From an uncultured Candidatus Saccharibacteria bacterium (GTDB lineage Bacteria; Patescibacteriota; CPR2; UBA1875; CAIMLA01), in contig CAZCRI010000002.1 in assembly GCA_964501135.1 (NCBI GenBank), forward strand, positions 29,644 to 93,643: DNA of 64,000 nt. The letters run 5' to 3'. Positions within the stretch are counted from its first letter, which is position 1, and each line of letters opens with the position of its first letter. The notes beneath the pieces were generated by a model. The model did not search any database. It was not told the DNA's origin and saw nothing but the letters and a program-made list of their open reading frames with translations. The translations under genes were made by a program, and so were the position numbers. This document shows positions 8,167 through 34,611 of the stretch, piece after piece.

Positions 8167-8241
8167 TGGGGAGTCGCCAAGTGGTAAGGCACCGGTTTTT
8201 GGTACCGGCATTCGGGGGTTCGAGTCCCTCCTCCCCAGCCA
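8167..8241 (+). tRNA. tRNA-Gln (anticodon UUG), CCA encoded
   Basis: Manual fold: acceptor TGGGGAG/CTCCCCA, D-arm GCC..GGC, anticodon stem CCGGT/ACCGG with loop TTTTGGT (anticodon TTG), T-arm GGGGG-TTCGAGT-CCCTC, discriminator G, CCA. Confidence 0.8.
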
Positions 8242-10845: not shown

Positions 10846-12587
10846 GTGAGATATCCTCCAGATTGAATTTCAAATAGTTTCGAATAGATCCCTTTTTGAG
10901 CTACAAGATCGCTGTGAGTCCCCATTTCCGAAATGCGTCCTTTGTCCATTACGACAATTATATCAGCTTTCATAACAGTAGATAGACGATGAGCGATGAT
11001 TATTGTGGTTTTACCATCAATTAGGCGCCACAAAGCATCTTGGATTAGCTGCTCGCTCTCTGAATCAAGACTAGAGGTGGCTTCATCCAGTACCAGAATC
11101 GGCGGATTTTTGAGGATTGCCCGCGCTATGTTAATACGTTGCTGCTCGCCTCCGGAGAGCTTAACTCCTCGCTCACCCACTACAGTCTCGTATTTATTTG
11201 GTAGCTTGGCAATAAATTGCTCTGCGTTCGCCTGTTTGGCGGCTTTTTCAATCTCGCTCCGCTTCGCATTTGGCCTGGAGTAGGCGATGTTCTCGGCTAC
11301 AGAGTTATTGAAGAGAATCGAGTCTTGTAAGACAACCCCAATGCCTTCTCTGAGCGATTTCTGGGTCACATCACAGACGTTTTGCCCGTCTATGGTAATT
11401 GTACCCTTCTGGGTGTCGTAGAAGCGAGAGAGCAGCTTTACGAGAGTCGTTTTGCCTGAACCACTTTTGCCCACAATAGCGAGAACTTTCCCAGCCGGAA
11501 CCTCCAAAGAAAGATTCTTTACTACCTTGTGGTCCTTATAGCCGAAAGTAACGTCCTTAAAGCTAATACTACCCTTTGTAACATTTAGTTTCTTTGCATT
11601 TGGAGTGTCTGTAATCTCTGACTCGGTGTCCAGAAGCTCAAAGACACGTTTGACGCTGCGCATTTTCTTTTGAACATCGTCAATAAGGCGAGTAATGTAC
11701 CATAGTGGCTGCATCGAGCGGTTTGTATATTGCCAGGCAAGGGTAAAGGCACCGAGGGTAATCTCCCCCGTAATAGTCCAATAAACGCCGAGCCCGATAA
11801 TGGCAATTTGTGTAAAGTCCATCGCAAGTAAGCGGAAGACATTCATAAATATTCTGCGCGTAACATATTTGATGTCGAGAACTATTGATTCAAGTAATTG
11901 GCTCACGAAAGCCTTGAGGTGACGATCCTCGGTAGCATAAGACTTGATGGTTTTAATGTTGATTATCGATTCGGTCATGATACCGCTAAGTTTCTCGTTT
12001 GAGTCCCTTGATTTGTCTTGAATCTGTAGTAATAGCGGTGAAAACTTTAGGCTGATTAAGATAAAGATTGGGGCACTTGCCATAAGAATCGTACCGAAAA
12101 TCCAGTTGACGGAGAAAAGGATACTGGCCGCAATCAGAATATAAATAAATTGAGGGATAATCTCAGTTAGGGTAGCTTCGATTATGTCGTTTAGCTCCCA
12201 AACACCCTTGTCGATGCGTTCTTTAATTTTACCAACGCTATTATTCTCAAAGTAATTTAGTGAAAGTGATTCAAGGTGTTCATAGACTCGACGGGATAAA
12301 ATTTCACGTGTCTTGTTGTACCACAAGACGGTATAGTAAAAGTTGATCTGGCCAAAGGCGTCGTTTGCAATCCAGAGAGTCGCGTAGAGACCAATTGCTT
12401 GCCAAAATGCCGGCGGCACTGCGTTTGATCCAGATTTTGCAGTCTCGCCAATCACGTCAAATAACATCTTGAAGGCCAGAGGAATTGCAACGTTAAAAGC
12501 GATCGAGACCGATACGGTCGCGAGCGCAATAAACATTAACTTTTTGTCGCTGGCAGCTAGTCTTAGGGCTCGCCAAAAATCACGCAT
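10842..12587 (-). CDS. ABC transporter, fused permease/ATPase (MsbA-like exporter)
   Basis: 6-TM N-terminal domain, Walker A GKSGSGKTT, signature LSGGEQQR, Walker B ILVLDEATS. Confidence 0.85.
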   Translation of the reverse strand: MRDFWRALRLAASDKKLMFIALATVSVSIAFNVAIPLAFKMLFDVIGETAKSGSNAVPPAFWQAIGLYATLWIANDAFGQINFYYTVLWYNKTREILSRRVYEHLESLSLNYFENNSVGKIKERIDKGVWELNDIIEATLTEIIPQFIYILIAASILFSVNWIFGTILMASAPIFILISLKFSPLLLQIQDKSRDSNEKLSGIMTESIINIKTIKSYATEDRHLKAFVSQLLESIVLDIKYVTRRIFMNVFRLLAMDFTQIAIIGLGVYWTITGEITLGAFTLAWQYTNRSMQPLWYITRLIDDVQKKMRSVKRVFELLDTESEITDTPNAKKLNVTKGSISFKDVTFGYKDHKVVKNLSLEVPAGKVLAIVGKSGSGKTTLVKLLSRFYDTQKGTITIDGQNVCDVTQKSLREGIGVVLQDSILFNNSVAENIAYSRPNAKRSEIEKAAKQANAEQFIAKLPNKYETVVGERGVKLSGGEQQRINIARAILKNPPILVLDEATSSLDSESEQLIQDALWRLIDGKTTIIIAHRLSTVMKADIIVVMDKGRISEMGTHSDLVAQKGIYSKLFEIQSGGYLT

Positions 12588-12640: not shown

Positions 12641-13240
12641 TTAGTACTCTCGTCTACCCTCTAGGGCGCGGGAAAGAGTGACTTCATCGGCATACTCTAG
12701 GTCGCCACCTACCGGTAAACCTCGGGCTATTCTGGTAATAGAGACGCCATATGGCGAGATAATTTTCTGTAAATATAGGGCAGTGGTTTCACCTTCTAGG
12801 GTCGGGTTGGTCGCTATCACGAGCTCCTCGATGCCACCATCTTTTATTCTGGTGAGAAGCTGAGAAATAAAGAGCTCGTCCGGTCCGATGCCGTCAACTG
12901 GAGAGATTACTCCTCCCAGAACATGATACAGTCCTTTGTAGCTTCCAGATCGTTCAAGTGCAACAACGTCTAGTGGTTCTCCGACGACGCAGATCTTGCT
13001 AGAATCCCTAGATGTATCGTTGCAAATTGAACAAAGTTCTGAATCGGTAAAATTACAACAAACCTTGCAAAAGGTGATCCCCTCTTTTAGGTTGCTAGCC
13101 GCCGCTCCGAGGTCTTGCGCGCTCTTATCGGCTTTACGGAGCAGATAAAAAGTAAGCCTCTGTGCGGTCTTAGGGCCGACACCTGGAAGCTTTGCAAATT
13201 CATCAATTAGATTTTGCACGCTGGCGGGGATAATATTCAA
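12641..13240 (-). CDS. recR: recombination protein RecR
   Basis: 199 aa; HhH N-terminus (PGVGPKTAQR), C4 zinc finger, Toprim domain. Confidence 0.85.
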   Translation of the reverse strand: MNIIPASVQNLIDEFAKLPGVGPKTAQRLTFYLLRKADKSAQDLGAAASNLKEGITFCKVCCNFTDSELCSICNDTSRDSSKICVVGEPLDVVALERSGSYKGLYHVLGGVISPVDGIGPDELFISQLLTRIKDGGIEELVIATNPTLEGETTALYLQKIISPYGVSITRIARGLPVGGDLEYADEVTLSRALEGRREY

Positions 13241-13618: not shown

Positions 13619-15421
13619 TTATTGCTTTTTGAGGTCGTAGATTAGGATAGAGCCACCAATATTTGTAATCGGCTTTTCAGAGTCTAGCCAAGCATAATCC
13701 ATACCGCCGTTAGCTTCCTTCTTCATCTTGGAATTTTGGTAAAAGGTAGCCGAGATAGCGAAGCAGCCGGTAGGTTTACCATTCTGGACGTGCCACTCAA
13801 TCATGCGATCACGACCAATGTAGTAAGCTGCTGGCATACTGCCTGGGAAGACATCAACATAAGTCTGGTACTGACACTTGTGTTCCTTGCTCATATCACT
13901 GGTCTTAATCCATTCGGAAAGGCGTTTAACATCCTGTCCCCAATCTAGATTCGAGTCAGTGAGATATTTGTAACCGTTCTGGTATCCGCCTACAAATTCG
14001 TTGAAATACGAAAGGTAGTGTGGGTAGGCAGAGAGCGAACCTAGGACGTACCAAACCGTTAACACTGGGATTAGTAGGGCGACGCTCAGGGCTTTCCAGT
14101 CCTTTAGGCCATTCTTAATTGCCGTGAAATCGATGAGACCAGTGAGTCTGGCTACCGCCACGAAAATGAATGGGAAAATCGGAAGCATGTAACGGATACC
14201 GAGGTTAATGCTCCCCTGCATGCCCATTACAAGTAAGACTAGCGGAAGCACCCAGAGATAGATCTCTGTGAACCAGCCATTCCATTGCAGTTTCTTACGG
14301 AAGATAAAGAGAAATGCCAAGAAGAAGAAAATCGGGATAGCTGTTTTTAGGGCGAGAACTACTGGGTAGTAATACCACCAACCCTTATTGGAGGTCATTC
14401 CAAGTAAGAAGGCGTCGTGACCACCCTCAACGTGGCCGGCAACCATTGAGAAGCCTAGTAACCACTGTGCAAGAGGCTTTGTGACTTGATTCCCTGACAT
14501 TCCGGCCAGAGTGTCTGCGACAACGGAATTACCTGGGATGGATTCATGGATAAGAGCACGTTGTACTTCTGCTGGCATATTCATTGTGTGGAAAAAGTAA
14601 AATCCCCACATCATAACAACGCCAGAGAGACAGATAATGGCAAATGAAACAAGAGCGGAAATAAAGCGCTTGGTAAGTTTCTGATCAAAAATACCTGTTA
14701 GTAGAGTAGTTTCTTTCTGGGTCCCCTTTCGAGCTAGCAGCATTAGGAAGATGATAATGTAGACTGGTCCCAGGATAGCGACAGAGAACTTGGTCACAAG
14801 GGCGATAAAGAAAGTGACCGCGGTTAGAAACATCCTCTTTTTGGTAGGTTTCTCAAGAAAATAGAAGAGTGAAAACAAATTAAGAAAAAGGGCGAATGAG
14901 ATGCCGAGATCGGTGGTGACAAATCTAGAGTGAGCGATAATGCTGGCGTCAAAAGCATAGAGAACTAACGCGAACAGCCCTGCTTTGACCCCAAATAGCT
15001 TTTTCGCCCAAATAAAGACCAAGAGGCCGAGAGTTAGGCTCAGAAGCATCATTGGAATGTGAGCAGCCTCTAGAATCTTAGAGGGGTCATTACCGGCGGT
15101 CTCGTAGATGAATTTCCAGCCCATTTGCCACTGGTTATTGATTACAGGTAAATTAGCCTTCCAGTAATCGTATGGAAACTTAAGATTCAAAAATAGCAAT
15201 GGTACCGCCGCCAAATCCTTGATCAGCGGTGGATGTTCTGGGTTCAGTCTGTAGTCACCAGTGGTGATATAGCTGTAGCCCGAAGGAATGTGCGCAATCT
15301 CATCGACAATTGCCGAGTCCCCTTTCGACGAGTAGAACATTGTAATAAACATGACCCCAAGAATCACTGGAACAAGCGCCCAGTACCAGTACTTTTTAAG
15401 TATTTCCATATTCCCCTCCAA
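13619..15421 (-). CDS. GT-C fold membrane glycosyltransferase (PMT/ArnT-like, GT39/GT83 family)
   Basis: 600 aa polytopic membrane protein; N-terminal loop DEIAHIPSGYSY...EHPPL matches the catalytic-loop layout of dolichyl/undecaprenyl-phosphate-sugar dependent transferases. Confidence 0.65.
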   Translation of the reverse strand: MEGNMEILKKYWYWALVPVILGVMFITMFYSSKGDSAIVDEIAHIPSGYSYITTGDYRLNPEHPPLIKDLAAVPLLFLNLKFPYDYWKANLPVINNQWQMGWKFIYETAGNDPSKILEAAHIPMMLLSLTLGLLVFIWAKKLFGVKAGLFALVLYAFDASIIAHSRFVTTDLGISFALFLNLFSLFYFLEKPTKKRMFLTAVTFFIALVTKFSVAILGPVYIIIFLMLLARKGTQKETTLLTGIFDQKLTKRFISALVSFAIICLSGVVMMWGFYFFHTMNMPAEVQRALIHESIPGNSVVADTLAGMSGNQVTKPLAQWLLGFSMVAGHVEGGHDAFLLGMTSNKGWWYYYPVVLALKTAIPIFFFLAFLFIFRKKLQWNGWFTEIYLWVLPLVLLVMGMQGSINLGIRYMLPIFPFIFVAVARLTGLIDFTAIKNGLKDWKALSVALLIPVLTVWYVLGSLSAYPHYLSYFNEFVGGYQNGYKYLTDSNLDWGQDVKRLSEWIKTSDMSKEHKCQYQTYVDVFPGSMPAAYYIGRDRMIEWHVQNGKPTGCFAISATFYQNSKMKKEANGGMDYAWLDSEKPITNIGGSILIYDLKKQ

Positions 15422-16343: not shown

Positions 16344-17585
16344 TTACTTTTTCAAATCTAGTGTTTTTGTATACATAGCTTGGACGGCTGGGTTCCCCTG
16401 CCAAGCGTAAAAGTATTTTTGAAAGTTGTAATAGACAGAAAGAAAGAGAAAAACTGAAAACAATAAAGTCATTACAACGCGTGCCGAGCGGTTGTAGGGG
16501 AAAGTTCGAACCCAGCTTGTTAGCAAGTAATCTAACATAATCGAGCTAAGGATAAAGATGGCCGGTAATAACAGAGCAACGTTAGCGATACTCTGTACTT
16601 TTGCAAATGAGATAATGATTACACCGAAAAGAACCCAAAGCAGGATGAATTGGTGTTTTCGCTTGCCACTATGAAAGAAGGCATAGACTATCCCGCAAAT
16701 GCTACTAACGGCCACAAAAGGATCCAGAATAGGCTCCAAGGCTACATTAATCGGTGAAATTGTCGCCGAGCCAGAAAAGAGGGTTAGTATGTTCTGACCC
16801 ACGTTAAGATAAAATGCTGCAATTGAGCCTGGTAAATAGGCTGTAATTATTGAACCGAGTGCGTTCAAGCAAAGAAAGAAATACAAGCCGATCGCAAATA
16901 GAATTGGTAGAGCAAGGATAATTAGCTCATATTTATAAAGAGTAAAAACCTTTTTGTTCTTTGCAATCATCGTAATGCTGGCGACAAAAATTAGAATTCC
17001 GGTAAGGACAAAGAGTGGGCTCAGAAATATACCCGCAGAGGCAAGTACGGCTGTGAGCAAGAACAACCATTTGTTTTTCTCCCTGAAAGCCGCTGTGGCC
17101 AAGTAAAGAATGGCCATTTGCAGTGCCAGAATAACGATTGTAATGTTTGTGACCCTCGAAAGAATCAGCATAGTGGTATTTGTGGCCATCAGAAGCGTCG
17201 CAATCAAAGCTACTTGTTTATTAAACCAGCTACGGGTAAATAGGAAGAAGAAAATAGAAGCGACGATTCCAATTAGGCTGGAAAATAATCGGAGATAGAG
17301 CGGACTATAGGCAGCTAAATGACCTAGAATGGCTACCTTATAGTAAAAAAGCGCTTCACTTACAAGCTTTGTCGGAGCAATCCAGTGGTTTGCAGCAATC
17401 TTCTGCCCGTTTGCAAGTAATGTTACCTCTTCGCTAGAAAAGCCTTTGAAGCTAGTGAGTCCCCAAAATCTCCAGAGGGCCCCCAAAAAAATCACGACCA
17501 AAGTGAGTAACAAGAATTGGTTTTCGGAAGCGAAGGTAGAGAACCTTTCGCGTAAAGAAGATAAATACTGAATTACTTTGTTCAT
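16344..17585 (-). CDS. second GT-C fold membrane glycosyltransferase (ArnT/PMT-like)
   Basis: 413 aa, >=10 predicted TM helices, position within the Gtr-like cluster. Confidence 0.5.
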   Translation of the reverse strand: MNKVIQYLSSLRERFSTFASENQFLLLTLVVIFLGALWRFWGLTSFKGFSSEEVTLLANGQKIAANHWIAPTKLVSEALFYYKVAILGHLAAYSPLYLRLFSSLIGIVASIFFFLFTRSWFNKQVALIATLLMATNTTMLILSRVTNITIVILALQMAILYLATAAFREKNKWLFLLTAVLASAGIFLSPLFVLTGILIFVASITMIAKNKKVFTLYKYELIILALPILFAIGLYFFLCLNALGSIITAYLPGSIAAFYLNVGQNILTLFSGSATISPINVALEPILDPFVAVSSICGIVYAFFHSGKRKHQFILLWVLFGVIIISFAKVQSIANVALLLPAIFILSSIMLDYLLTSWVRTFPYNRSARVVMTLLFSVFLFLSVYYNFQKYFYAWQGNPAVQAMYTKTLDLKK

Positions 17586-25656: not shown

Positions 25657-25855
25657 TTTCTCTCCCTCTCCCTTCTGCCATTTTGACCGAAGCGGAGAAA
25701 TCTTTTTAGTGCCTAGGCACCCTTGTCGACCCAATAAAAAATCTTCGATTTCTCGAAGACACATTGGAATAAAATTCATAAAGATTATGCGTTTTACTCC
25801 CTCGGTAGCGGATTAAGCCCTGTGGGCAGCTACTGTCTCCGGAAATTACCTACGT

Positions 25856-25884
25856 ATTTTAGCAAAATATAGCTGTAAGGTCAA
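25856..25884 (-). promoter_or_regulatory. sigma70-like promoter of rplJ-rplL with ~190-nt structured leader
   Basis: minus strand TTGACC (25884-25879), 17 nt spacer, TAAAAT (25861-25856); leader contains hairpins (TCTTCGA/TCGAAGA, GTGCCTAGGCAC palindrome), candidate L10 autoregulatory leader. Confidence 0.5.
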
Positions 25885-25903
25885 GCAAAATCTTATAAAT
25901 GGC

Positions 25904-25939
25904 GTTAGTGCCGGCTCCCTCGCGGTTGCCGGCACTAAC
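25904..25939 (-). terminator. perfect 12-bp GC-rich stem-loop, terminator of island gene 25961..26341 and left edge of GC-rich insert
   Basis: GTTAGTGCCGGC tccctcgcggtt GCCGGCACTAAC; 21 nt downstream of the gene stop; weak U-tract. Confidence 0.5.
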
Positions 25940-25960
25940 AGTACCACATGGAACTTGGGC

Positions 25961-26341
25961 CTACTGGAGGCGGAGTTGCAGCTCGTGATTGAACTTGTCC
26001 TTCTCGGACTGCGGCACAGCGTCGTACCAGGCGCTCGTCGCTTCGAAGTAGGAATCGCGCAACTCGGCCGGAATGAGGTCATTGGTACAGATAGCAAGGT
26101 AGAGCTTGCTGCCTCCTACCGTGAGGAGCTTCTCGCTGTCCGGCCGTTCCGGGTTGTCACTTGCCACTGCAAGTGCCTGCGCATCCTGCAGGGCGCTGCG
26201 GAGCTGAGAACGATAGAGCTTGCTGATCGACTCATCGCTGCTCTGCAGGACGTCCGCAGCGAACTCCTCCATAAGCGCGAGAGCACCGCGCTTCTGCGCG
26301 ATCTCAGCTTCGATCTGCTCGGGCTTTCGGCTGTCCGCCAT
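25961..26341 (-). CDS. hypothetical protein (126 aa), GC-rich island gene
   Basis: Start at MADSRKPEQ preceded by AGGAGA SD (6-nt spacer); GC-rich; antisense + ORF is Leu/Arg-rich and looks like a GC artefact. Confidence 0.5.
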   Translation of the reverse strand: MADSRKPEQIEAEIAQKRGALALMEEFAADVLQSSDESISKLYRSQLRSALQDAQALAVASDNPERPDSEKLLTVGGSKLYLAICTNDLIPAELRDSYFEATSAWYDAVPQSEKDKFNHELQLRLQ

Positions 26342-26407
26342 GACGAATCTCCTGTTCCTCAAGGTTTGGATAGGTGGTACTGTGTCTTGCGACGCCTAAA
26401 TATAACA

Positions 26408-26797
26408 TTATTGCTTTGTGTGGTCAAGAAGGGCAGATGAGTACAAAGTCCTCCCTAAGAGCCTATATTTGCCTGAGAGAGCCCTTGCAGCCGCAATTTC
26501 ACTGCGCATTTGTGCAAATTTCAAGTCATTACCCTTACAAAAGAACTCGCGGCAAACCTGGGGTCGCCTAGCATGAATGCTACATTTCTCATTTTCTAAG
26601 TAGAAACAGCTTCCATCACTATTCTGCATAATGATATTTGCACCGCATTCAGTAGCTAAATCAAAATCATCTATAATCTCGAGCTGAGAGAAAGTTGTTT
26701 TGAACTCTCCCGACCGGTATTCTTCTTCGTTCAAGTTTATAAGAAACAGCTGGCAGCAGATGCCGCAAGAATCACATTTATTTGATATTATTTCCAT
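26408..26797 (-). CDS. YkgJ/UPF0153-family putative zinc/iron-chelating protein (CxxCxxCC)
   Basis: CDSCGICCQ motif plus downstream C..C..H..C cluster typical of PF03692. Confidence 0.6.
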   Translation of the reverse strand: MEIISNKCDSCGICCQLFLINLNEEEYRSGEFKTTFSQLEIIDDFDLATECGANIIMQNSDGSCFYLENEKCSIHARRPQVCREFFCKGNDLKFAQMRSEIAAARALSGKYRLLGRTLYSSALLDHTKQ

Positions 26798-26828
26798 CAC
26801 CCCATTCTATCAGTAAACTAGCATATCC

Positions 26829-26857
26829 TTGAAACAATATGTAATAAATGCTATATT
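26829..26857 (+). promoter_or_regulatory. sigma70-like promoter for + strand island gene
   Basis: TTGAAA (26829-26834), 17 nt, TATATT (26852-26857); followed by GGAGG SD at 26892. Confidence 0.5.
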
Positions 26858-26903
26858 ACCTTGTCACTCACCGTGGCAACTTCCAGGGAATGGAGGTGAG
26901 CTT

Positions 26904-27365
26904 GTGGCTCACGAAGAACTTGTAAGGAATATCGATTCTGCAAGAGATAGTTACCTTGAGTGCAAGGCTCGAGGTGACGAACTCACGCGGCAGGCTTGCC
27001 TCGAGTATCAGCAGGCTAACGAACATCTCCGCCTCCAGGCTTACGAGGCAGCGAAGCTGTTTGTCGTCATCATGTCACCATTCATGAGCATCTCAGAGAC
27101 AGAACGAAGTCTCGCATACTTTGTTCATCTCTTCGTCGAAAAGCCACTACCATCGAAGGACGACATCGACCTTCTCTCGGCGACAATTGAGCTCGCAAAG
27201 GCAACTAAACAGGAGCTGCTTGAGGCCGATTTGGCCGCGAGAGGACACGAGTTTCCTCGCCTCAGGACGGTGTTCCACTCTCTATGGGTTGACGAGCCTG
27301 TGGCAGACGACTACGCTATGGCCGTCATGAGGCTTTATCGTAGCGTCGGTTGCCACAAACCCTAG
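26904..27365 (+). CDS. hypothetical protein (153 aa) with own promoter, SD and terminator
   Basis: GTG start 7 nt after GGAGG; the track ORF start at 26829 overlaps the promoter; ends at a strong hairpin terminator. Confidence 0.5.
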   Translation: MAHEELVRNIDSARDSYLECKARGDELTRQACLEYQQANEHLRLQAYEAAKLFVVIMSPFMSISETERSLAYFVHLFVEKPLPSKDDIDLLSATIELAKATKQELLEADLAARGHEFPRLRTVFHSLWVDEPVADDYAMAVMRLYRSVGCHKP

Positions 27366-27431
27366 CGCCCAAAGCGCACGCACTTGTACTCCCGTACGAT
27401 GGCGCTGCACTTTGGGCGCTTTTCGTTATAT
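27364..27431 (+). terminator. intrinsic terminator (11-bp stem + T-tract), possibly bidirectional
   Basis: AGCGCCCAAAG ... CTTTGGGCGCT with inner GTAC-tccc-GTAC hairpin, followed by TTTTCGTTATAT. Confidence 0.65.
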
Positions 27432-27503
27432 AAAAATGGAAGACGCCCCCGCTGCAAAGTACACAACAGGGTTGTCTTCTTTGCCGCAGGGGCGCTGGTT
27501 TGG

Positions 27504-27944
27504 CTACTCTGTAGCCGGGTAATCCAAGCGGGGTGGCGCTCCCAGGTTGCTGAACACTTCCGGTATACTGGCCCCGTGAAGCACCCAGCACGCCAAGGTG
27601 AGATGAAAGCACGGATTCAGATGGGAACAATATCCGTGGCCGTCATCAAAACGATCGAGGTCCAGGAGTCGTGAGATGAGCTCCGCTCGACGCATATGGT
27701 CAAGCGACGTTATGAGTCCCTCGACTCGCGTCATGACACCAACGACCTGGTAGATCTGCGATTCGGCCTTGGCATAGCGGTATTTCGTGGTCACAAGGCG
27801 GATGATACTCCACAGTGGGAGCGCCTCCTGCAGATCAAAGAGCTCCGTTTGTCTTACTCGAAGCTCAAGGAGAAACTGCTCCGCCTTCGCGAGGAAAATC
27901 CGAAGTTGCTCCTCGACTATGGGAAGTTCATTATCGCCTACCAT
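27504..27944 (-). CDS. hypothetical protein (~146 aa), island gene
   Basis: Start at second ATG (MVGDNELP) preceded by GAGAGGGGA SD; upstream TAGACA-17-TATAAT promoter at 28007-27979. Confidence 0.45.
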   Translation of the reverse strand: MVGDNELPIVEEQLRIFLAKAEQFLLELRVRQTELFDLQEALPLWSIIRLVTTKYRYAKAESQIYQVVGVMTRVEGLITSLDHMRRAELISRLLDLDRFDDGHGYCSHLNPCFHLTLACWVLHGASIPEVFSNLGAPPRLDYPATE

Positions 27945-28017
27945 TGCATCCCCTCTCATTGTCGCAACCTATGAGCGAGATTATACGATGAAGTACGTGC
28001 ACTGTCTAGAGAAAACC

Positions 28018-29253
28018 TTAACTATTGCGAAGGGACAAATCGAGTTCCTGTGCCTCGGCGCTAGTAAGGAGCGACATCTCGTTGTAACCGAGTAGGCTAA
28101 GCCCCTCGATATCACGAACTCGTGAAAGCGCCACGTAACCCAAACCATAAGTAAAAGAACGAGAGAGATCGATCTCGGCGTAGTCCAAGGTCATCCCCTG
28201 GCTTTTGTGTATCGTGATTGCCCAGGCTAAGCGTAGGGGAATTTGCTCTATCCAATCGTCGGAGCCAATTTCGTCACTTCCCCATCGCATCGGTGCGGCA
28301 AGGACAGTATCTCCTCTAAAAGTTTCGACAACGGGATAACCAGTATCTATATCAAAATCAGTAACCACCCCAGTGGTTCCGTTAACGTAGTTTTTTGTTG
28401 GGTTGTTAAAGACGAACATTACCACAGCCCCCTTTCTTAGCCTGAGGGTTTCTGGCGCCAAGCAGCCCTTGCGCATTTGAGTGACGATGTAGCCCTCCCC
28501 GCTATCCTTCATCTCGAATAAGTGATCAACCCCTTCTAGGGTATTTAGTCTACTTTCGTTGTAAGTATCAACGTTAGTGTTGTGGGTATACAATTTGGTC
28601 GGAATGACGGTTTCATCAAAAGAAAAGTTTAGCCTCTCACTGAGGAGCCCCACGCTTTCGTCGCTGACTCGCGATTCACGAATTTCATTTAGGATTTTAT
28701 GTAGCGAGTTGTTCTCGGTTTGGCGGTATTGTTTATCCAAATAACAAACATGGAGATTCATTTGCTGCCAAGCAGTGGAGAGATTAACGAAATTACCCCT
28801 ATTCTTTACCTTTGAGACTGGCGGCAATTGAAAGAAATCACCACACAGAACCACCTGAAGGCCGCCAAAGGGGCCCAGTTCGGTCCTTACACGCCGACAA
28901 ATCTCATCCAACAGATCCAGCTGGTAATCATGAAGCATCGAGATTTCATCAATGATAAGGACACTAGCCTCCTGAATTCTCTTTATCGCTGCCTTATTCT
29001 TGGTGAACATCTTCTTTATTTCGGCGGGGGTCATGTGGTCCTTGATTCCCATACCACTCCAAGAGTGGATTGTAGCTCCACCGAGATGGGTTGCTGCGAT
29101 TCCTGTAGAAGCGGTAATCCCAACCTTAATCTGATTCTTGTTTAAATATTGAATAAACTGGTTTAAGAGATAAGTCTTGCCTGTACCTGCTTGACCGGTA
29201 ATTAAAGCGTTTTTACCGCTAACTAGTATTTCAAAAGCTTCTTCTTGTGTCAT
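28018..29253 (-). CDS. PIF1/RecD-family SF1B DNA helicase
   Basis: Walker A GQAGTGKTY, Walker B IIDEISM, motifs ITIHKSQG and YVALSRV; 411 aa. Confidence 0.85.
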   Translation of the reverse strand: MTQEEAFEILVSGKNALITGQAGTGKTYLLNQFIQYLNKNQIKVGITASTGIAATHLGGATIHSWSGMGIKDHMTPAEIKKMFTKNKAAIKRIQEASVLIIDEISMLHDYQLDLLDEICRRVRTELGPFGGLQVVLCGDFFQLPPVSKVKNRGNFVNLSTAWQQMNLHVCYLDKQYRQTENNSLHKILNEIRESRVSDESVGLLSERLNFSFDETVIPTKLYTHNTNVDTYNESRLNTLEGVDHLFEMKDSGEGYIVTQMRKGCLAPETLRLRKGAVVMFVFNNPTKNYVNGTTGVVTDFDIDTGYPVVETFRGDTVLAAPMRWGSDEIGSDDWIEQIPLRLAWAITIHKSQGMTLDYAEIDLSRSFTYGLGYVALSRVRDIEGLSLLGYNEMSLLTSAEAQELDLSLRNS

Positions 29254-29439
29254 TCGTATATTATCCCTGTTTAGACCCCTTAAAACTAGTGGACAAGTTT
29301 CGGCTTCAATCTATAAAAATAGACTGTTCAATACTTAAATTTTCAAGTATAATGCACGTGTTTTGCAGCTTTGGTAGAAAGAACATGGCGACGGCAATTT
29401 GGCAGATAACTCTGCCAAAAGAGATGAAAGGAGTCCGCT

Positions 29440-29586
29440 ATGTGCGGAGAGCTTGCGGCAGGATTCTCGGGCGACATCAGCTGGGTTGGGAGGTGCCAAC
29501 CGGCTCCGGAACTCGACGAGGACGTCCCGAAGGAGACTACGGAGTCTGACACAGAGGATAGCGCAATCGCCACAGAGGGTACCTAG
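29440..29586 (+). CDS. candidate small acidic protein (48 aa) with strong SD
   Basis: GAAAGGAG 6 nt upstream of ATG; upstream TATAAT at 29348-29353; hairpin AGGACG/CGTCCT directly after stop; overlapping alternative frames exist in this GC-rich stretch. Confidence 0.3.
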   Translation: MCGELAAGFSGDISWVGRCQPAPELDEDVPKETTESDTEDSAIATEGT

Positions 29587-29720
29587 GACGGCGCCACGTC
29601 GTCCTAAGCCACCTCTCAGCACCGACGCCTACCCTACTACCATCTACCGTCACCTTGGTGACAATCTGCACAAACTAGGCCGGATCCCTACCATTGGGGC
29701 CCGGCCTTGTGCCTTTTTAC

Positions 29721-30314
29721 CTATTTAGCACCGTAAACCACAAAACCTTGGTGGCGGAGATCTTCTGCCAACTTCTTTTCTGCAATCTGAGCTTCTTCTT
29801 TTGTTTTGAATGCCTTGTAACCCGAATATAGATCTGGTCGCAAAATAGGATTCTCTGCCTTGCGAATCTTTACCGAAGAATTATAGCCCGCAATATGCTG
29901 TACTAGACGGACTTCCGGATCATAAATCGACTGCCCTACATAAACTTTCTTCGGGTTATTATCGAGTTCCACGACATAGATTTGCCAGAAATCTTTCTGC
30001 AGATGAGCACCAGCAATAACTTGGTAATTCTTTTCAGTGAGAACCTCAACCTGCTCTAATACCAGCGCTTTGGCTGCTTCCTCTGTTATGACTGGCATTA
30101 TCTTTGCTGATTTCTCAATCAACATTACTGGTTTCTTGCCGTGTCGGACACTGCGAATAAATTTCTCGAAGCATTTCTGGATATGTTCCTGACTATACTG
30201 AATGAACAGTTTGCGAGAACCTTTGCTTATTTCAAAAATATATACCTGATAGGGAATATTGTCTGGTTTGATTTCTGATATGTTTTTGTTTTCCATGAGG
30301 GCATTGTATCTCAT
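29721..30314 (-). CDS. protein with C-terminal GIY-YIG nuclease-like domain and unknown N-terminal domain
   Basis: QIYVVEL (GIY), 10 aa, KVYVGQS (YIG), PEVRLVQH (R..H), downstream N and E; 197 aa. Confidence 0.55.
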   Translation of the reverse strand: MRYNALMENKNISEIKPDNIPYQVYIFEISKGSRKLFIQYSQEHIQKCFEKFIRSVRHGKKPVMLIEKSAKIMPVITEEAAKALVLEQVEVLTEKNYQVIAGAHLQKDFWQIYVVELDNNPKKVYVGQSIYDPEVRLVQHIAGYNSSVKIRKAENPILRPDLYSGYKAFKTKEEAQIAEKKLAEDLRHQGFVVYGAK

Positions 30315-30352
30315 TTTTGTGCTTAATGACAGGTTTTTATACTCTTACGAAA

Positions 30353-30386
30353 GGAGTCCGCGCCGGAGGCGCTTGGCGCGGACTCC
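30353..30386 (-). terminator. perfect 12-bp GC-rich stem-loop terminator downstream of gene 30427..30744
   Basis: GGAGTCCGCGCC ggaggcgctt GGCGCGGACTCC; minus strand followed by TTTCGTAAGAGTAT. Confidence 0.55.
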
Positions 30387-30426
30387 TTCACGGACTTGTG
30401 CATCAGCTCAAGGCTGAATTCGTTGG

Positions 30427-30744
30427 CTACAGACAGAACTTCTCCGGAACATTGAAACGGAAGGGGGTGAATTCCCTCTTCGGACCAGGACGATAGTACC
30501 CAGTGCAAGGACTCTCGTCCTCCGCTTCAATGAGAACGTAGATCTCCCGCCCCCGTAGCTGCTTCTTGAGAAACTCCAGAACGGGGCCTATCCTGCCTCG
30601 TGTGCCTTTGGGTTTGTAGTAGAGGCAGAAATAGAACAAACCCTGGTAGCGCCTCAGGACGACCTCGCCATTCACCCACTGGCGAACGATTTCGGTAGCT
30701 TCCTCTGGTGTTAGAGGACGGTTCTGGGTCTTCTTTTTTGCCAT
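30427..30744 (-). CDS. hypothetical basic protein (105 aa)
   Basis: GAGGGG SD 4-5 nt upstream of ATG; dedicated terminator; no recognisable family. Confidence 0.5.
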   Translation of the reverse strand: MAKKKTQNRPLTPEEATEIVRQWVNGEVVLRRYQGLFYFCLYYKPKGTRGRIGPVLEFLKKQLRGREIYVLIEAEDESPCTGYYRPGPKREFTPFRFNVPEKFCL

Positions 30745-30964
30745 GTTTCCCCTCTCAGCGTATGGGAATACTACAACGAATATACACGGATCCCACTTCT
30801 ATGGCCCGTGAAATACACGTAAACTACTTAGGTGCACCTGGTATATTCTTTACAAACACAGGATTAGATATCTTAGTACAGAATTGTTGCAAAAACAAGT
30901 AAAAGATAAGTGCCCGCCTCCTACGGGACTCATCATTAGGGTCCGGGAAACGGGCACTGGGTCC

Positions 30965-31291
30965 CTAGGAGACCAGGGCGGCAGCGATGAAGGCGAGCAA
31001 CTCGCTCGGCTTGGACGTGTGTACGTGGACTTCCTGAAGGCCACTCGGCCGACGGTCGATAACCTTCACTCCCAGGACGGGAGCGTCCTTGCCCGGCGTG
31101 CAACCGCGAAGTTCAGTGGCCCTGCGAAATGGCCTTGCCGGACGCATCGGCTTCTCGGTAGGCTTGGCACTCTTGTGCGTAATGCGCGCGTCCGGGTCAG
31201 GGCAATCCTCGTGTGCAAGGATTGCTGTCACGTCGCCGAGAAGTGGAAAGACCTTCTCGCTGTGCTTCTCGCGCTGAGATTGTGTCGACAT
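30965..31291 (-). CDS. hypothetical protein (108 aa), GC-rich
   Basis: GGGGAG SD 5 nt upstream of ATG; TTGCAT-18-TATAAT promoter at 31416-31387 on minus strand. Confidence 0.45.
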   Translation of the reverse strand: MSTQSQREKHSEKVFPLLGDVTAILAHEDCPDPDARITHKSAKPTEKPMRPARPFRRATELRGCTPGKDAPVLGVKVIDRRPSGLQEVHVHTSKPSELLAFIAAALVS

Positions 31292-31421
31292 TCGTTCTCC
31301 CCTGTCGATGTCTACAAGATGGAAAGACTACCAATACTCCTTTCAACATGATGCAATCGCATCCTGGAATTCCGTAGAATGCTAAGATTATATTCCTAGG
31401 GTAAGGCCAAATGCAAGGCCT

Positions 31422-32426
31422 TTAGATATCCCAGGCGAAGCTATTCCCAAAGTGACCCTTGGAGGCAGTTTGTCGATAGACTGGATCTTTAAGTCCCAAG
31501 AAGTCGATAATTCCTTTTGGAGAGAGGTCATACTCTTTATTCTCTAGCAAGTTCAATTCCTGCTCACCATCGATTATTGCGATAGCCATCACGGGCTGTA
31601 TCACACCGATGCTATAGGCAAGCTTCACCAGCACTTCGTTACAGTCGAGCTTTCTAAGATAATCAACGGCAATTCGACGCGCCATGTAGGCAGCGCTACG
31701 ATCAACCTTGGTGGCATCCTTACCGCTATAGCAACCTCCACCGATCGGTATCTGCGGTCCGTAATTATCTACAGCTAGCTTACGACCAGTTAGTCCAGTG
31801 TCCGCAGTAAAACCACCTATAGAGAAATCCCCTGTTGGATTAATGTGAATGTGTTTTGGTTTTAGAGTTTCTGCCAACTCGCGAAGGGGAGCAAAATCTG
31901 CCCCCGGTTGGTGTTGTGCGCTTATAACAACCGTATCGACACTGCCATCTTCGGCCAAGGTAACTTGGCTTTTGGCGTCAGGGCCAAAACCTGCTGGCAA
32001 GGCATGAATTAGCTTTCGCGAGAGGTAAAGTTCTTGTGGTATCATCGCTTCGTTTTCGTTACAAGCATATCCAATCATAATTCCCTGGTCGCCTGCCCCA
32101 CCAACATCAACGCCTTGGGCGATTTCTGGACTTTGATGCACTACATTCGTAAACACCTGTAGAGTATCTTCATAGCCAATTTCCGTATAAACATTTTGTA
32201 CAATTAAGCTTAAATCAAAGTGCGCCTTCGAAGTCACTTCACCGGTTATATATACCTGCCCATGTCCTCCCATAACTTCAACAGCGACTCTACTAAGAGG
32301 GTCCTGCTCTAAATATCTATCCAAGATAGCGTCCGATATTTGGTCACAAACCTTATCCGGGTGCCCCATACTGACGCACTCTGCGGTTCTCATTCCTTTA
32401 CTTCTAAAGTATTCATTATTATCCAT
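31422..32426 (-). CDS. metK: S-adenosylmethionine synthetase
   Basis: GHPDKVCDQISDAILD N-terminus and MetK central/C-terminal domains; 334 aa (short form). Confidence 0.85.
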   Translation of the reverse strand: MDNNEYFRSKGMRTAECVSMGHPDKVCDQISDAILDRYLEQDPLSRVAVEVMGGHGQVYITGEVTSKAHFDLSLIVQNVYTEIGYEDTLQVFTNVVHQSPEIAQGVDVGGAGDQGIMIGYACNENEAMIPQELYLSRKLIHALPAGFGPDAKSQVTLAEDGSVDTVVISAQHQPGADFAPLRELAETLKPKHIHINPTGDFSIGGFTADTGLTGRKLAVDNYGPQIPIGGGCYSGKDATKVDRSAAYMARRIAVDYLRKLDCNEVLVKLAYSIGVIQPVMAIAIIDGEQELNLLENKEYDLSPKGIIDFLGLKDPVYRQTASKGHFGNSFAWDI

Positions 32427-32440
32427 TATGTTTCCTTTCT

Positions 32441-32597
32441 TTAATAATCAAAATATCTCTTTCCACTGAAAGAGATAAGGTCGACCTTTCCTATTAGGAC
32501 TTATCGCTCCACTCACGTGGCTAGCATTAGCACCCTACTTGTCTTGGGGTTGCCGGCAGGTCATTGGGCTAGTTCCCTATCTGCGCTCTCGATATAT
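32441..32597 (-). promoter_or_regulatory. SAM-I (S-box) riboswitch with terminator/antiterminator expression platform in the metK leader
   Basis: Minus strand reads AUAUCGAGAG-CGCAGAUAGGGAACUAGCCCAAUGACCUGCCGGCAACC-...-GGGUGCUAAUGC-UAGCCACGUGAGUGG-AGCGAUAAG, matching SAM-I core elements (UAUCGAGAG, AGGGA..GCCC.AUGA, CCGGCAACC, GGUGCUAAU, P1 GAUAAG); downstream CUUAUC antiterminator partner overlaps terminator ATCTCTTTC/GAAAGAGAT (32455-32476) + U-tract, 15 nt before the metK ATG. Confidence 0.7.
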
Positions 32598-32629
32598 TTG
32601 ATTGTACTAAAATTATATAGGCTAACCCC

Positions 32630-34023: not shown

Positions 34024-34611
34024 TTAGTTATTGTCAATGATTACTTTGGGCCCTAAGTGGCGTTTACGGTATTCTGCGACAATCATTTCGACCACCTCAT
34101 CTATAGAGTGTCGGGCCGTATCAATGACCAAGTCATAATGTTTTTCTTGGGTGTAGTCGAGTTCATAGAGTTTTGCGTACCTCTTTAGCTCGCTTGTTAT
34201 CCGGGTCTCAATATCAATTTTAACGTCTTGGATAGTACTAGCCGTCTGACTCATACGCCCACCAACCTGAATCTGGGTAAAAACCCTTTTGGCGGCAGTA
34301 TCAGGGTCCAGCTTAAGGTAAACCTTGAAGGAGTCTGGAATCCAATGAAAGGCAGTCCGCGAATCAATCACTACGTCTTTTTCCTGAACTCCGATATCAC
34401 GCAACCTCTGGTCGACACGGAAATCAATTTCCTTCTCGTCCTCGACTATCTTATTAAGGCTGGCGATATCCACCCCATACTCCGAGGCAATATCACGAAA
34501 AATATCACCTGAAGAAAAATGACTATACCCAAGATGGGTGGCCACTTTCTTGGCGGTAGTCGATTTTCCCGCCCCAGGTACTCCCGCAATTGTAATTATT
34601 GGCTTCTTCAT
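34024..34611 (-). CDS. cmk: cytidylate kinase-like nucleoside monophosphate kinase
   Basis: P-loop GVPGAGKST at N-terminus, 195 aa NMP-kinase fold; family assignment from architecture and context. Confidence 0.55.
   Translation of the reverse strand: MKKPIITIAGVPGAGKSTTAKKVATHLGYSHFSSGDIFRDIASEYGVDIASLNKIVEDEKEIDFRVDQRLRDIGVQEKDVVIDSRTAFHWIPDSFKVYLKLDPDTAAKRVFTQIQVGGRMSQTASTIQDVKIDIETRITSELKRYAKLYELDYTQEKHYDLVIDTARHSIDEVVEMIVAEYRKRHLGPKVIIDNN

Follow-up and report, generated by a model that had tools for sequence, protein, structure and literature searches.

The locus between rplJ and metK raises the question of whether a patch of unusual base composition arrived there as one piece. The 64-kb stretch of DNA that was analysed, referred to here as the window, has a GC content of about 44% and carries ordinary housekeeping genes of a Patescibacteria bacterium (candidate phyla radiation, CPR). 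An earlier note had described positions 25,885-31,421 (the interval) as a single block of horizontally acquired DNA. We consider it about 70% probable that the interval is instead a hypervariable accessory region, in which an inherited backbone is interleaved with short GC-rich genes that we call cassettes. The DNA is indeed anomalous, accessory, variable and rich in unknown genes, as the earlier note had held, but it does not behave as one 5.5-kb insert. Related Patescibacteria contigs and loci are given L-numbers throughout.

GC content was 49.3% in the interval compared with 44.0% in the remaining window. Outside the interval, 300-nt segments had a mean GC of 0.440 (standard deviation 0.033, maximum 0.53), and all of the segments above 0.53 in the whole 64 kb (33/33) fell within 25,851-31,350, with peaks of 0.59-0.63. 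The abrupt change of composition that had been seen by eye was therefore confirmed. The anomaly is real, and it is mosaic. A 200-nt profile resolved five GC-rich blocks (GC 0.55-0.63) at about 25.9-26.4, 26.9-27.96, 29.35-29.72, 30.35-30.75 and 30.85-31.3 kb, between which GC is at or below the genome mean. The blocks had earlier been placed roughly right, except that the second starts about 0.45 kb further left and the fourth contains an AT-rich gap (30.75-30.85 kb), which divides the two rightmost blocks. The interval holds nine genes, three with known domains and six without, and the GC-rich blocks correspond to the six unknown genes and their terminators. Composition departs from the background in only five or six of the nine. 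Among 39 background open reading frames (ORFs) of at least 200 amino acids (aa), GC at third codon positions (GC3) was 0.435±0.029 with a maximum of 0.527. The range in the cassettes, 0.54-0.76, refers to five genes: u133 (0.76), u108 (0.71), u105 (0.65), u151 (0.62) and u178 (0.54). The three genes with known domains are native-like (PIF1 0.49, YkgJ 0.43, GIY-YIG 0.41). The excess in the cassette genes lies mainly at third positions, GC at second positions (GC2) being near normal, and their codon usage is distinct from that of the rest (AAG 0.83 vs 0.44; ATC 0.68 vs 0.33).

The nearest relative available for comparison is L002, a Patescibacteria metagenome-assembled genome (MAG) that was found by a MetK scan of species-representative genomes and whose MetK is 90% identical to that of the window. 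L002 carries the same block between metK and rplJ; the order and orientation of all the cassettes are unchanged, and the GC mosaic is preserved. The L002 block measures 8.2 kb and includes three extra genes, namely the GC-rich x335 and x156 and a gene of native GC for a zinc-ribbon/DUF4352 protein. Window and L002 DNA align continuously through the flanks and the island at 69-82% identity. The earlier note had named presence of the same gene block across all relatives as the sign of an ancestral, not an inserted, block. The result lies part way: the whole block is present in L002, across native four-fold sites that are nearly randomised.

The three genes with known domains all lie on the reverse strand. 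The product of 26408..26800 (130 aa) is by its Pfam match a YkgJ-type CxxCxxCC protein (PF03692, E 3e-9, 37.9 bits vs a cut-off of 23), with metal binding predicted only. That of 28018..29253 (411 aa) is assigned to the PIF1 family of superfamily 1B (SF1B) DNA helicases by full-length similarity to the helicase core: it matches PF05970 (E 6e-40, 137.6 bits vs a cut-off of 25.9) and, just under the cut-off, PF21530 (Pif1 2B, 21.4 bits), and its best PDB match is human PIF1 (E 2e-67, residues 7-396). It also matches the PHROG family 'Dda-like helicase' (E 3e-70) and is matched by generic PADLOC helicase models. Homologues of this helicase number thousands in Patescibacteria, about 25 of them at 70-77% identity, and the closest ones are from Patescibacteria. 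The product of 29721..30314 (197 aa) has a C-terminal GIY-YIG domain (PF01541, E 1e-8, 35.7 bits vs a cut-off of 22.6, residues 110-187); a PDB sequence search with this protein gave nothing meaningful. The identities earlier proposed for these three genes were thus upheld by Pfam, while the total of eight genes has to be raised to nine by the addition of s48 (29440-29586, forward strand).

These three genes keep their order across the clade. PIF1 is followed by the CxxCxxCC gene, either adjacent, with a 4-8-nt overlap, or with one small gene between, in at least seven contigs with housekeeping surroundings; the PIF1-YkgJ order was found in L006, L007/8, L009/10, L012/13 and L017. L011 reproduces the backbone order of the window (GIY-YIG…PIF1…YkgJ…rplJ-rplL-tgt), and L014 has metK-DUF362-PIF1. 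Identities between window and L011 were 77% for PIF1 and 74-78% for GIY-YIG, compared with 80% for tgt and 76% for rplJ. Each gene compared was nearer to L002 than to L011 (PIF1 0.87 vs 0.77; GIY-YIG 0.80 vs 0.74). Because gene order is conserved and the identities fit vertical descent, the backbone appears to have been inherited and not inserted. The possibility that one genome had exchanged its PIF1, GIY-YIG or YkgJ for a foreign allele was considered and rejected, the pairwise identities being those expected of vertical descent with fast evolution. Four-fold-site identity between window and L002 also speaks against such an exchange: ordinary genes range over 0.30-0.50, and PIF1 (0.31) and GIY-YIG (0.26) fall at the more diverged extreme of this range or slightly beneath it. 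The native GC3 of PIF1, YkgJ and GIY-YIG and their conserved order in related contigs contradict the earlier proposal of a single insert. The PIF1-CxxCxxCC pair was seen in L006, L007, L009, L011, L012 and L017, often with the 4-8-nt overlap, and this pairing suggests a functional partnership. The convergent GC-rich genes u151 and u178 stand between the two members of the pair in the window and in L002.

The six remaining genes occupy four slots: u108 with u105, s48, the convergent pair u151/u178, and u133. Because nonsynonymous divergence (dN) is well below synonymous divergence (dS), and because the genes share a codon signature, conserved motifs and conserved Shine-Dalgarno sequences, we regard the cassettes as protein-coding and under purifying selection. 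For u133, u151 and u178 the proportions of nonsynonymous and synonymous differences from L002 (pN and pS) were 0.33-0.39 and 0.78-0.89, with motifs and Shine-Dalgarno sequences conserved. For most cassettes, an AT-rich promoter-like site of sigma-70 type and a Shine-Dalgarno sequence were recognised. No match to any of the six proteins was found in Pfam, NCBIfam, PHROGs or PADLOC, and Rfam at E values up to 5 gave nothing inside the GC-rich blocks. From 25,700 to 31,600 the only Rfam matches were the L10 leader and, at the left edge, a chance-level small RNA (sRNA) match (E 4.3, 18.5 bits vs a gathering score of 66).

Proceeding from the rplJ side, u133 (25961..26341, reverse strand, 126 aa) has a promoter-like site at 26427-26399 and is 47% identical to its L002 orthologue, with a pN of 0.34 that is far below the pS of 0.79. 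Its N-terminus gave a weak DUF3618 match (E 0.008) that falls under the family cut-off. The moderately GC-rich orphan u178 (26904..27365, forward strand) is 42% identical to its L002 orthologue. Its most likely start is GTG 26904 after GGAGGTGA, which gives 153 aa, and a product of this length was called on a contig of the Logan assembly; the open frame reaches back to 26829. The convergent orphan u151 (27504..27944, reverse strand, 146 aa) starts at ATG 27944 after GAGGGG and carries a conserved C-terminal motif, FDDGxGxCSHLNPCFHLTLACWVLH. An AlphaFold2 model of u151 is a helical hairpin with a predicted local distance difference test (pLDDT) score of 72; the best Foldseek matches of this model in PDB were CdvB/ESCRT-III-like (E about 0.09), were not significant and were not used.

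The small GC-rich gene s48 (29440..29586, forward strand, 48 aa) corresponds to a conserved L002 ORF and was also called on the Logan contig. Its N-terminus (MCGE.AAGF…W.G.CQP), its Shine-Dalgarno sequence and a predicted TATAAT promoter near 29349 are conserved in L002. Its acidic tail is variable, and it has a leader of about 85 nt (29320-29586, forward strand, for leader and gene). On the metK side, u105 (30427..30744, reverse strand, 105 aa) is 83% identical to its L002 orthologue (dN/dS 0.14) and had no family or PDB match. The clade-restricted u108 (30965..31291, reverse strand, 108 aa) has a dN/dS of 0.10 against its L002 orthologue; its AlphaFold2 model (pLDDT 47) was not usable. Upstream of u108, the window (31292-31421, reverse strand) and L002 (11006-11135) share a conserved leader of about 95 nt, and the predicted u108 promoter overlaps the putative metK terminator hairpin.

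Beyond L002 the contents of the slots change. The slots between backbone genes in L011, L012, L009 and L016 hold other unannotated genes, many of them GC-rich (GC3 0.6-0.84), and by tblastn these are unrelated to the window cassettes with the exception of u108. No family was found for the GC-rich orphan genes of the relatives in PADLOC, PHROGs, NCBIfam or Pfam. The slot between PIF1 and YkgJ in L011 (4329-4835) is occupied by an AT-rich P-loop gene with a GC3 of 0.28, and therefore slots take genes whose GC is above as well as below that of the host. The sole cassette with wider relatives is u108, which has tblastn homologues in L009 (3703-4014) and L016 (8004-8300) at 48-53% identity and GC3 0.66-0.72. 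Both are uncalled in public gene sets, and in L009 an antisense ORF was called in place of the gene. It follows that protein-database searches under-detect the GC-rich genes of these genomes. Judged from these comparisons, the region behaves like a series of slots prone to insertion, in which small genes turn over.

We then asked how the cassettes compare with native genes at synonymous sites. At 1,467 native four-fold sites, where GC (GC4) was 0.40, the state of a site (strong, S, or weak, W) correlated between window and L002 with a coefficient of only 0.097 (confidence interval 0.04-0.15). With this correlation, an ancestrally GC-rich gene evolving under the native process would be almost fully ameliorated. 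Back-calculation of the ancestral GC4 of u108, u105, u151 and u133 gave 1.05-1.37, which are impossible values. By position and flanking alignment u133, u151 and u178 are orthologues of their L002 counterparts, and their four-fold-site identity is 0.26-0.31, that is, randomised. GC3 of u133 and u151 is 0.62-0.76 in both genomes, and that of u178 is 0.54 in the window and 0.62 in L002. Across four genomes the u108 family keeps a GC3 of 0.66-0.73, with amino-acid identity at about 50%. Polarised synonymous changes in u108 comprised 9 S-to-W and 1 W-to-S, where saturated GC-rich outgroups give about 5:1 by chance. Because the cassettes are GC-rich in both species despite near-randomised native synonymous sites, they are not simply recent imports that have yet to ameliorate. 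One tentative explanation, which we think possible and still rather doubtful, is that these clade-restricted genes are at a stable GC-rich codon equilibrium of their own (GC3 about 0.65-0.75) in genomes of 44-48% GC. The force responsible may be GC-biased gene conversion in slots prone to recombination, or else selection acting on cassette-gene DNA or RNA; such selection might arise if these genes were attuned to, or interacted with, a GC-rich partner, either the host or a mobile one.

The hairpins that follow the cassettes are a further shared feature. Putative terminators were found after u133 (H1, 25904..25939, reverse strand; 12-bp perfect stem, free energy (ΔG) -30.7 kcal/mol, z -6.1), for u178 (H2, 27364-27420, forward strand; -37.3 kcal/mol, z -6.8) and for u151 (H2b, about 27445-27496, reverse strand; -35.7 kcal/mol, z -6.1), H2 and H2b being convergent. 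Fold analysis placed hairpins after s48 at 29574-29616, and a putative two-way terminator serving s48 (forward) and GIY-YIG (reverse) at 29674-29710, in a segment about 80% conserved in L002. H3 after u105 (30351..30388, reverse strand; 14-bp perfect stem, -31 kcal/mol, z -5.3) and H6 after u108 (30909..30958, reverse strand; -28.1 kcal/mol, z -3.6) complete the set. Overall the stems are of 12-15 bp, with ΔG from -28 to -37 kcal/mol and z from -3.6 to -6.8. The U tracts on their 3' sides are short or interrupted, and only some sites passed a terminator consensus scan. The unusual GC richness and weak U tracts had been noted before, with stems then given as 11-12 bp. In L002 the H3 module follows not only u105 but also the extra gene x335, and an H2-like module is found after both u164 (the orthologue of u178) and x156; the repeated copies are 11940-11995 with 13092-13148, and 13700-13765 with 17425-17500. 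Copies within L002 are more alike than the orthologous copies of window and L002, an indication that terminator modules have been duplicated or have undergone gene conversion. Both arms of H1 are identical in L002 (18910-18946) despite nearly randomised neutral sites, which suggests that H1 is kept as an insulator of the rplJ promoter.

Native elements bound the interval on both sides. To the left is an rplJ promoter-like site from a promoter scan (TTGACC-17-TAAAAT, 25884-25856, reverse strand), directly upstream of the ribosomal protein L10 leader (25727-25860, reverse strand; Rfam RF00557, 62.8 bits vs a gathering score of 44). To the right is metK (31422-32426, reverse strand), whose stop at 31422 lies about 130 nt from the u108 start at 31291. 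The edges are therefore where they had been drawn before, with the promoter-like site next to the H1 hairpin at one end and the 130-nt spacing at the other. A S-adenosylmethionine (SAM) riboswitch scoring above its Rfam gathering score lies upstream of metK (32498-32598, reverse strand), and together with the L10 leader of rplJ it brackets the region; both are ordinary.

Searches for a donor or for signs of mobility were negative. Among 5.8 billion proteins, u108 matched itself and its L002 orthologue only, and so did a u133 profile. The search with u151, read exhaustively, recovered only its L002 orthologue among 1.84 billion representatives, and u178 had no relative in metagenome contigs. 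IMG/VR scans with PIF1, GIY-YIG, u108, u151 and u133 found no close relative, the sole match being a helicase fragment of 28% identity. The whole interval gave no blastn match to phage and plasmid collections. PHROG matches of interval proteins were limited to the helicase and a weak match to YkgJ. In PADLOC only PIF1 was matched, by generic helicase-domain models, and the other eight proteins had no match; a known defence system was rejected, there being no system-specific match. A repeat search for att-like flanking repeats returned only short chance matches, no tRNA adjoins the interval (the sole tRNA of the window is at 8167), and no integrase was recognised in the window ORF list, which was read by eye with no family scan made. 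The earlier suggestion of a high-GC donor such as Actinobacteria was not sustained, in that no homologue was found outside the clade, in phages or in plasmids.

With these results the alternatives can be weighed. A single recent insert of about 5.5 kb, with eight or nine genes from a high-GC donor such as an actinobacterium, would explain why the GC and GC3 anomaly is confined to the interval and why the terminators are GC-rich, and the sub-threshold DUF3618 match of the u133 N-terminus may be counted for it. We judge it very unlikely, since three of the genes are native in composition and in clade-wide synteny, L002 has the same block at a synonymous divergence close to saturation, no homologue from a high-GC taxon appeared among the 5.8 billion proteins and 1.84 billion representatives, and no integrase-like ORF, adjacent tRNA or direct repeat was recognised. 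A classical genomic island was rejected on similar grounds, the whole block being present in L002 with only individual cassettes varying, and mobility signatures and closest homologues in a foreign taxon both being lacking. A prophage or integrative element was rejected because the phage, plasmid and IMG/VR searches found no similarity except the 28%-identical helicase fragment. Ongoing flux, in which cassettes are re-acquired from an unsampled GC-rich pool (phage, plasmid or the DNA of an epibiont's host) and are GC-rich because the copies are young, is unlikely but deserves more weight. The slot contents differ wholly among more distant relatives, L002 has extra cassettes, the synonymous sites of u108 and u105 have diverged less than those of ordinary genes, and many genomic islands and horizontally transferred genes have been reported in Patescibacteria (PMC12455944). 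Against flux, u133, u151 and u178 lie in continuously alignable DNA with conserved hairpins, are orthologues by descent, and are GC-rich in both genomes although their synonymous sites are randomised; nor did the protein, viral, phage, plasmid and metagenome searches reveal any member of such a pool.

We give even less credence than to the single insert to the idea that the GC-rich blocks are structured non-coding RNAs or an integron-type cassette array. A GC-rich island in an AT-leaning genome is often an RNA gene; moreover, a strong hairpin closes every block, and in L002 hairpin modules are repeated behind different genes. The blocks nevertheless had no Rfam match, their GC3 is well above GC2 and dN well below dS, and they conserve Shine-Dalgarno sequences and protein motifs. 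As to integrons, no integrase-like ORF was recognised, the perfect palindromes do not fit the attC core-site consensus, and the cassettes face both ways, most with a predicted promoter of their own. The integron reading was rejected for the lack of an integrase-like ORF in the 64 kb and of attC features in the hairpins. The least credible alternative is a chimera of assembly or binning, in which GC-rich fragments of another organism were joined to Patescibacteria DNA. Although the GC changes are sharp, at the scale of a few hundred bases, they fall at gene boundaries, five times over, and the GC-rich genes have AT-rich predicted promoters and Shine-Dalgarno sequences that resemble those of the host. 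A Logan assembly contig (run ERR3839025), which may share reads with the assembly of the window, is 100% identical to 25789-29641 and spans several native/GC-rich junctions, and the same mosaic is present in the separate MAG L002 and in other relatives. A chimeric assembly is thus unlikely.

We therefore return to the reading of a hypervariable accessory region, which would be built in two layers. The first, vertically inherited and of native composition, would comprise metK, the GIY-YIG protein, PIF1, the CxxCxxCC protein and rplJ-rplL-tgt. The second would be the six short genes in their four slots, each cassette forming an independent unit of predicted promoter (in most), Shine-Dalgarno sequence, ORF and stable GC-rich hairpin. 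The terminators would block read-through into neighbouring genes, with H1 shielding the rplJ promoter and leader. We infer that foreign DNA of GC-richer origin supplied the cassettes, which would have come into the slots singly or in pairs through illegitimate or homology-facilitated recombination, and that this entry predates the split from the nearest sequenced relative. Later, cassettes would have been gained, lost and rapidly diverged, giving three extra genes in L002 and unrelated orphans in distant relatives. Their high GC3 would be maintained, by selection at synonymous sites or by GC-biased gene conversion, and would not be a decaying relic.

Several points weigh against this account. 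The four-fold-site identity of u108 and u105 (0.62-0.65) is above that of ordinary genes, and this lower divergence could reflect synonymous constraint or, equally, later transfer between lineages. The amelioration argument uses 30-55 four-fold sites per cassette and assumes that native four-fold sites are neutral. Furthermore, u178 is only moderately GC-rich in the window (GC3 0.54). Vertical inheritance of the backbone is deduced from pairwise identities only. Promoter and terminator function and the expression of the cassettes are indirect predictions. Finally, the orphan status of the cassettes is partly a statement about sampling, since some of these genes escape the public gene callers.

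Among known kinds, the interval comes closest to the hypervariable regions and genomic islets of streamlined bacteria, such as the 'metagenomic islands' of SAR11, along with the islands of Patescibacteria. Like these, the interval has a fixed position between core genes, a content that differs among close relatives, mostly unknown genes of deviant composition and no need for mobility genes. It differs in that the foreign-looking DNA stands in one- or two-gene units among native genes and not in one block, that the orphans are GC-richer than the host, and that the shared cassettes retain their GC at a synonymous divergence close to saturation. As a rule, acquired and orphan genes are richer in AT than their host. 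Integron arrays, including attC clusters lacking integrase, likewise consist of short orphan ORFs each followed by a hairpin, with modules recurring behind unrelated genes. Unlike integrons, the interval has cassettes in both orientations, most with a predicted promoter, no IntI was recognised in the 64 kb, and its hairpins form perfect palindromes and depart from the consensus GTTRRRY/RYYYAAC. A Dda/PIF1-like helicase with a GIY-YIG protein resembles prophage remnants or integrative elements, GIY-YIG nucleases being common in phages. In contrast to such remnants, the helicase here is chromosomal clade-wide, with native composition and conserved neighbours, and no integrase, att site, adjacent tRNA or structural phage gene was recognised. 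Along its whole length the helicase matches the solved structures of human PIF1, yeast Pif1 and Bacteroides Pif1 (E 2e-67 to 2e-49), and it differs from them in being paired with a CxxCxxCC protein throughout the clade.

Some neighbouring features complete the picture. The earlier note had counted the missing rplKA genes among the signs of insertion. No L11 or L1 signature motif was indeed found in the window, but rplK and rplA are likewise absent upstream of rplJ in L002 and L011, so that their absence is a trait of the lineage and not due to an insertion. The distant MetK loci L003 and L004 had no rplJ nearby and hence gave no synteny information. A second GC-rich gene (GC3 0.58-0.69) lies just after topA in L007 (6529-6933), L016 (7339-7722) and L006 (9487-9897); the copies of L007 and L016 are only about 31% identical. 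In the window, the region of a 195-aa P-loop kinase-like gene (34024-34611) has no blastn alignment to L002 7779-8346 whereas both flanks align, and this gene may have been replaced, or be very divergent, in L002.

In most respects the region is fairly ordinary and of a known kind, and the persistent GC3 is the one unexplained feature. The locus carries a caution, in that a compositional island recognised by eye or by window statistics can be a fine mosaic of native and foreign-looking genes. Labelling the whole interval as horizontally transferred would wrongly make the PIF1-YkgJ-GIY-YIG backbone foreign. Protein databases underestimate the spread of such GC-rich genes because gene callers mis-call them. 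For the Patescibacteria, the region marks a zone of plasticity beside core operons and adds clade-restricted small proteins that are under purifying selection, for which host interaction is a speculative possibility. If the equilibrium reading is true, it would overturn a common rule, by which AT-richness and amelioration toward the host are expected of orphan and accessory genes. If the maintained GC3 holds genome-wide, the clade would naturally allow a test of what sets bacterial base composition, biased gene conversion or selection as opposed to mutation bias.

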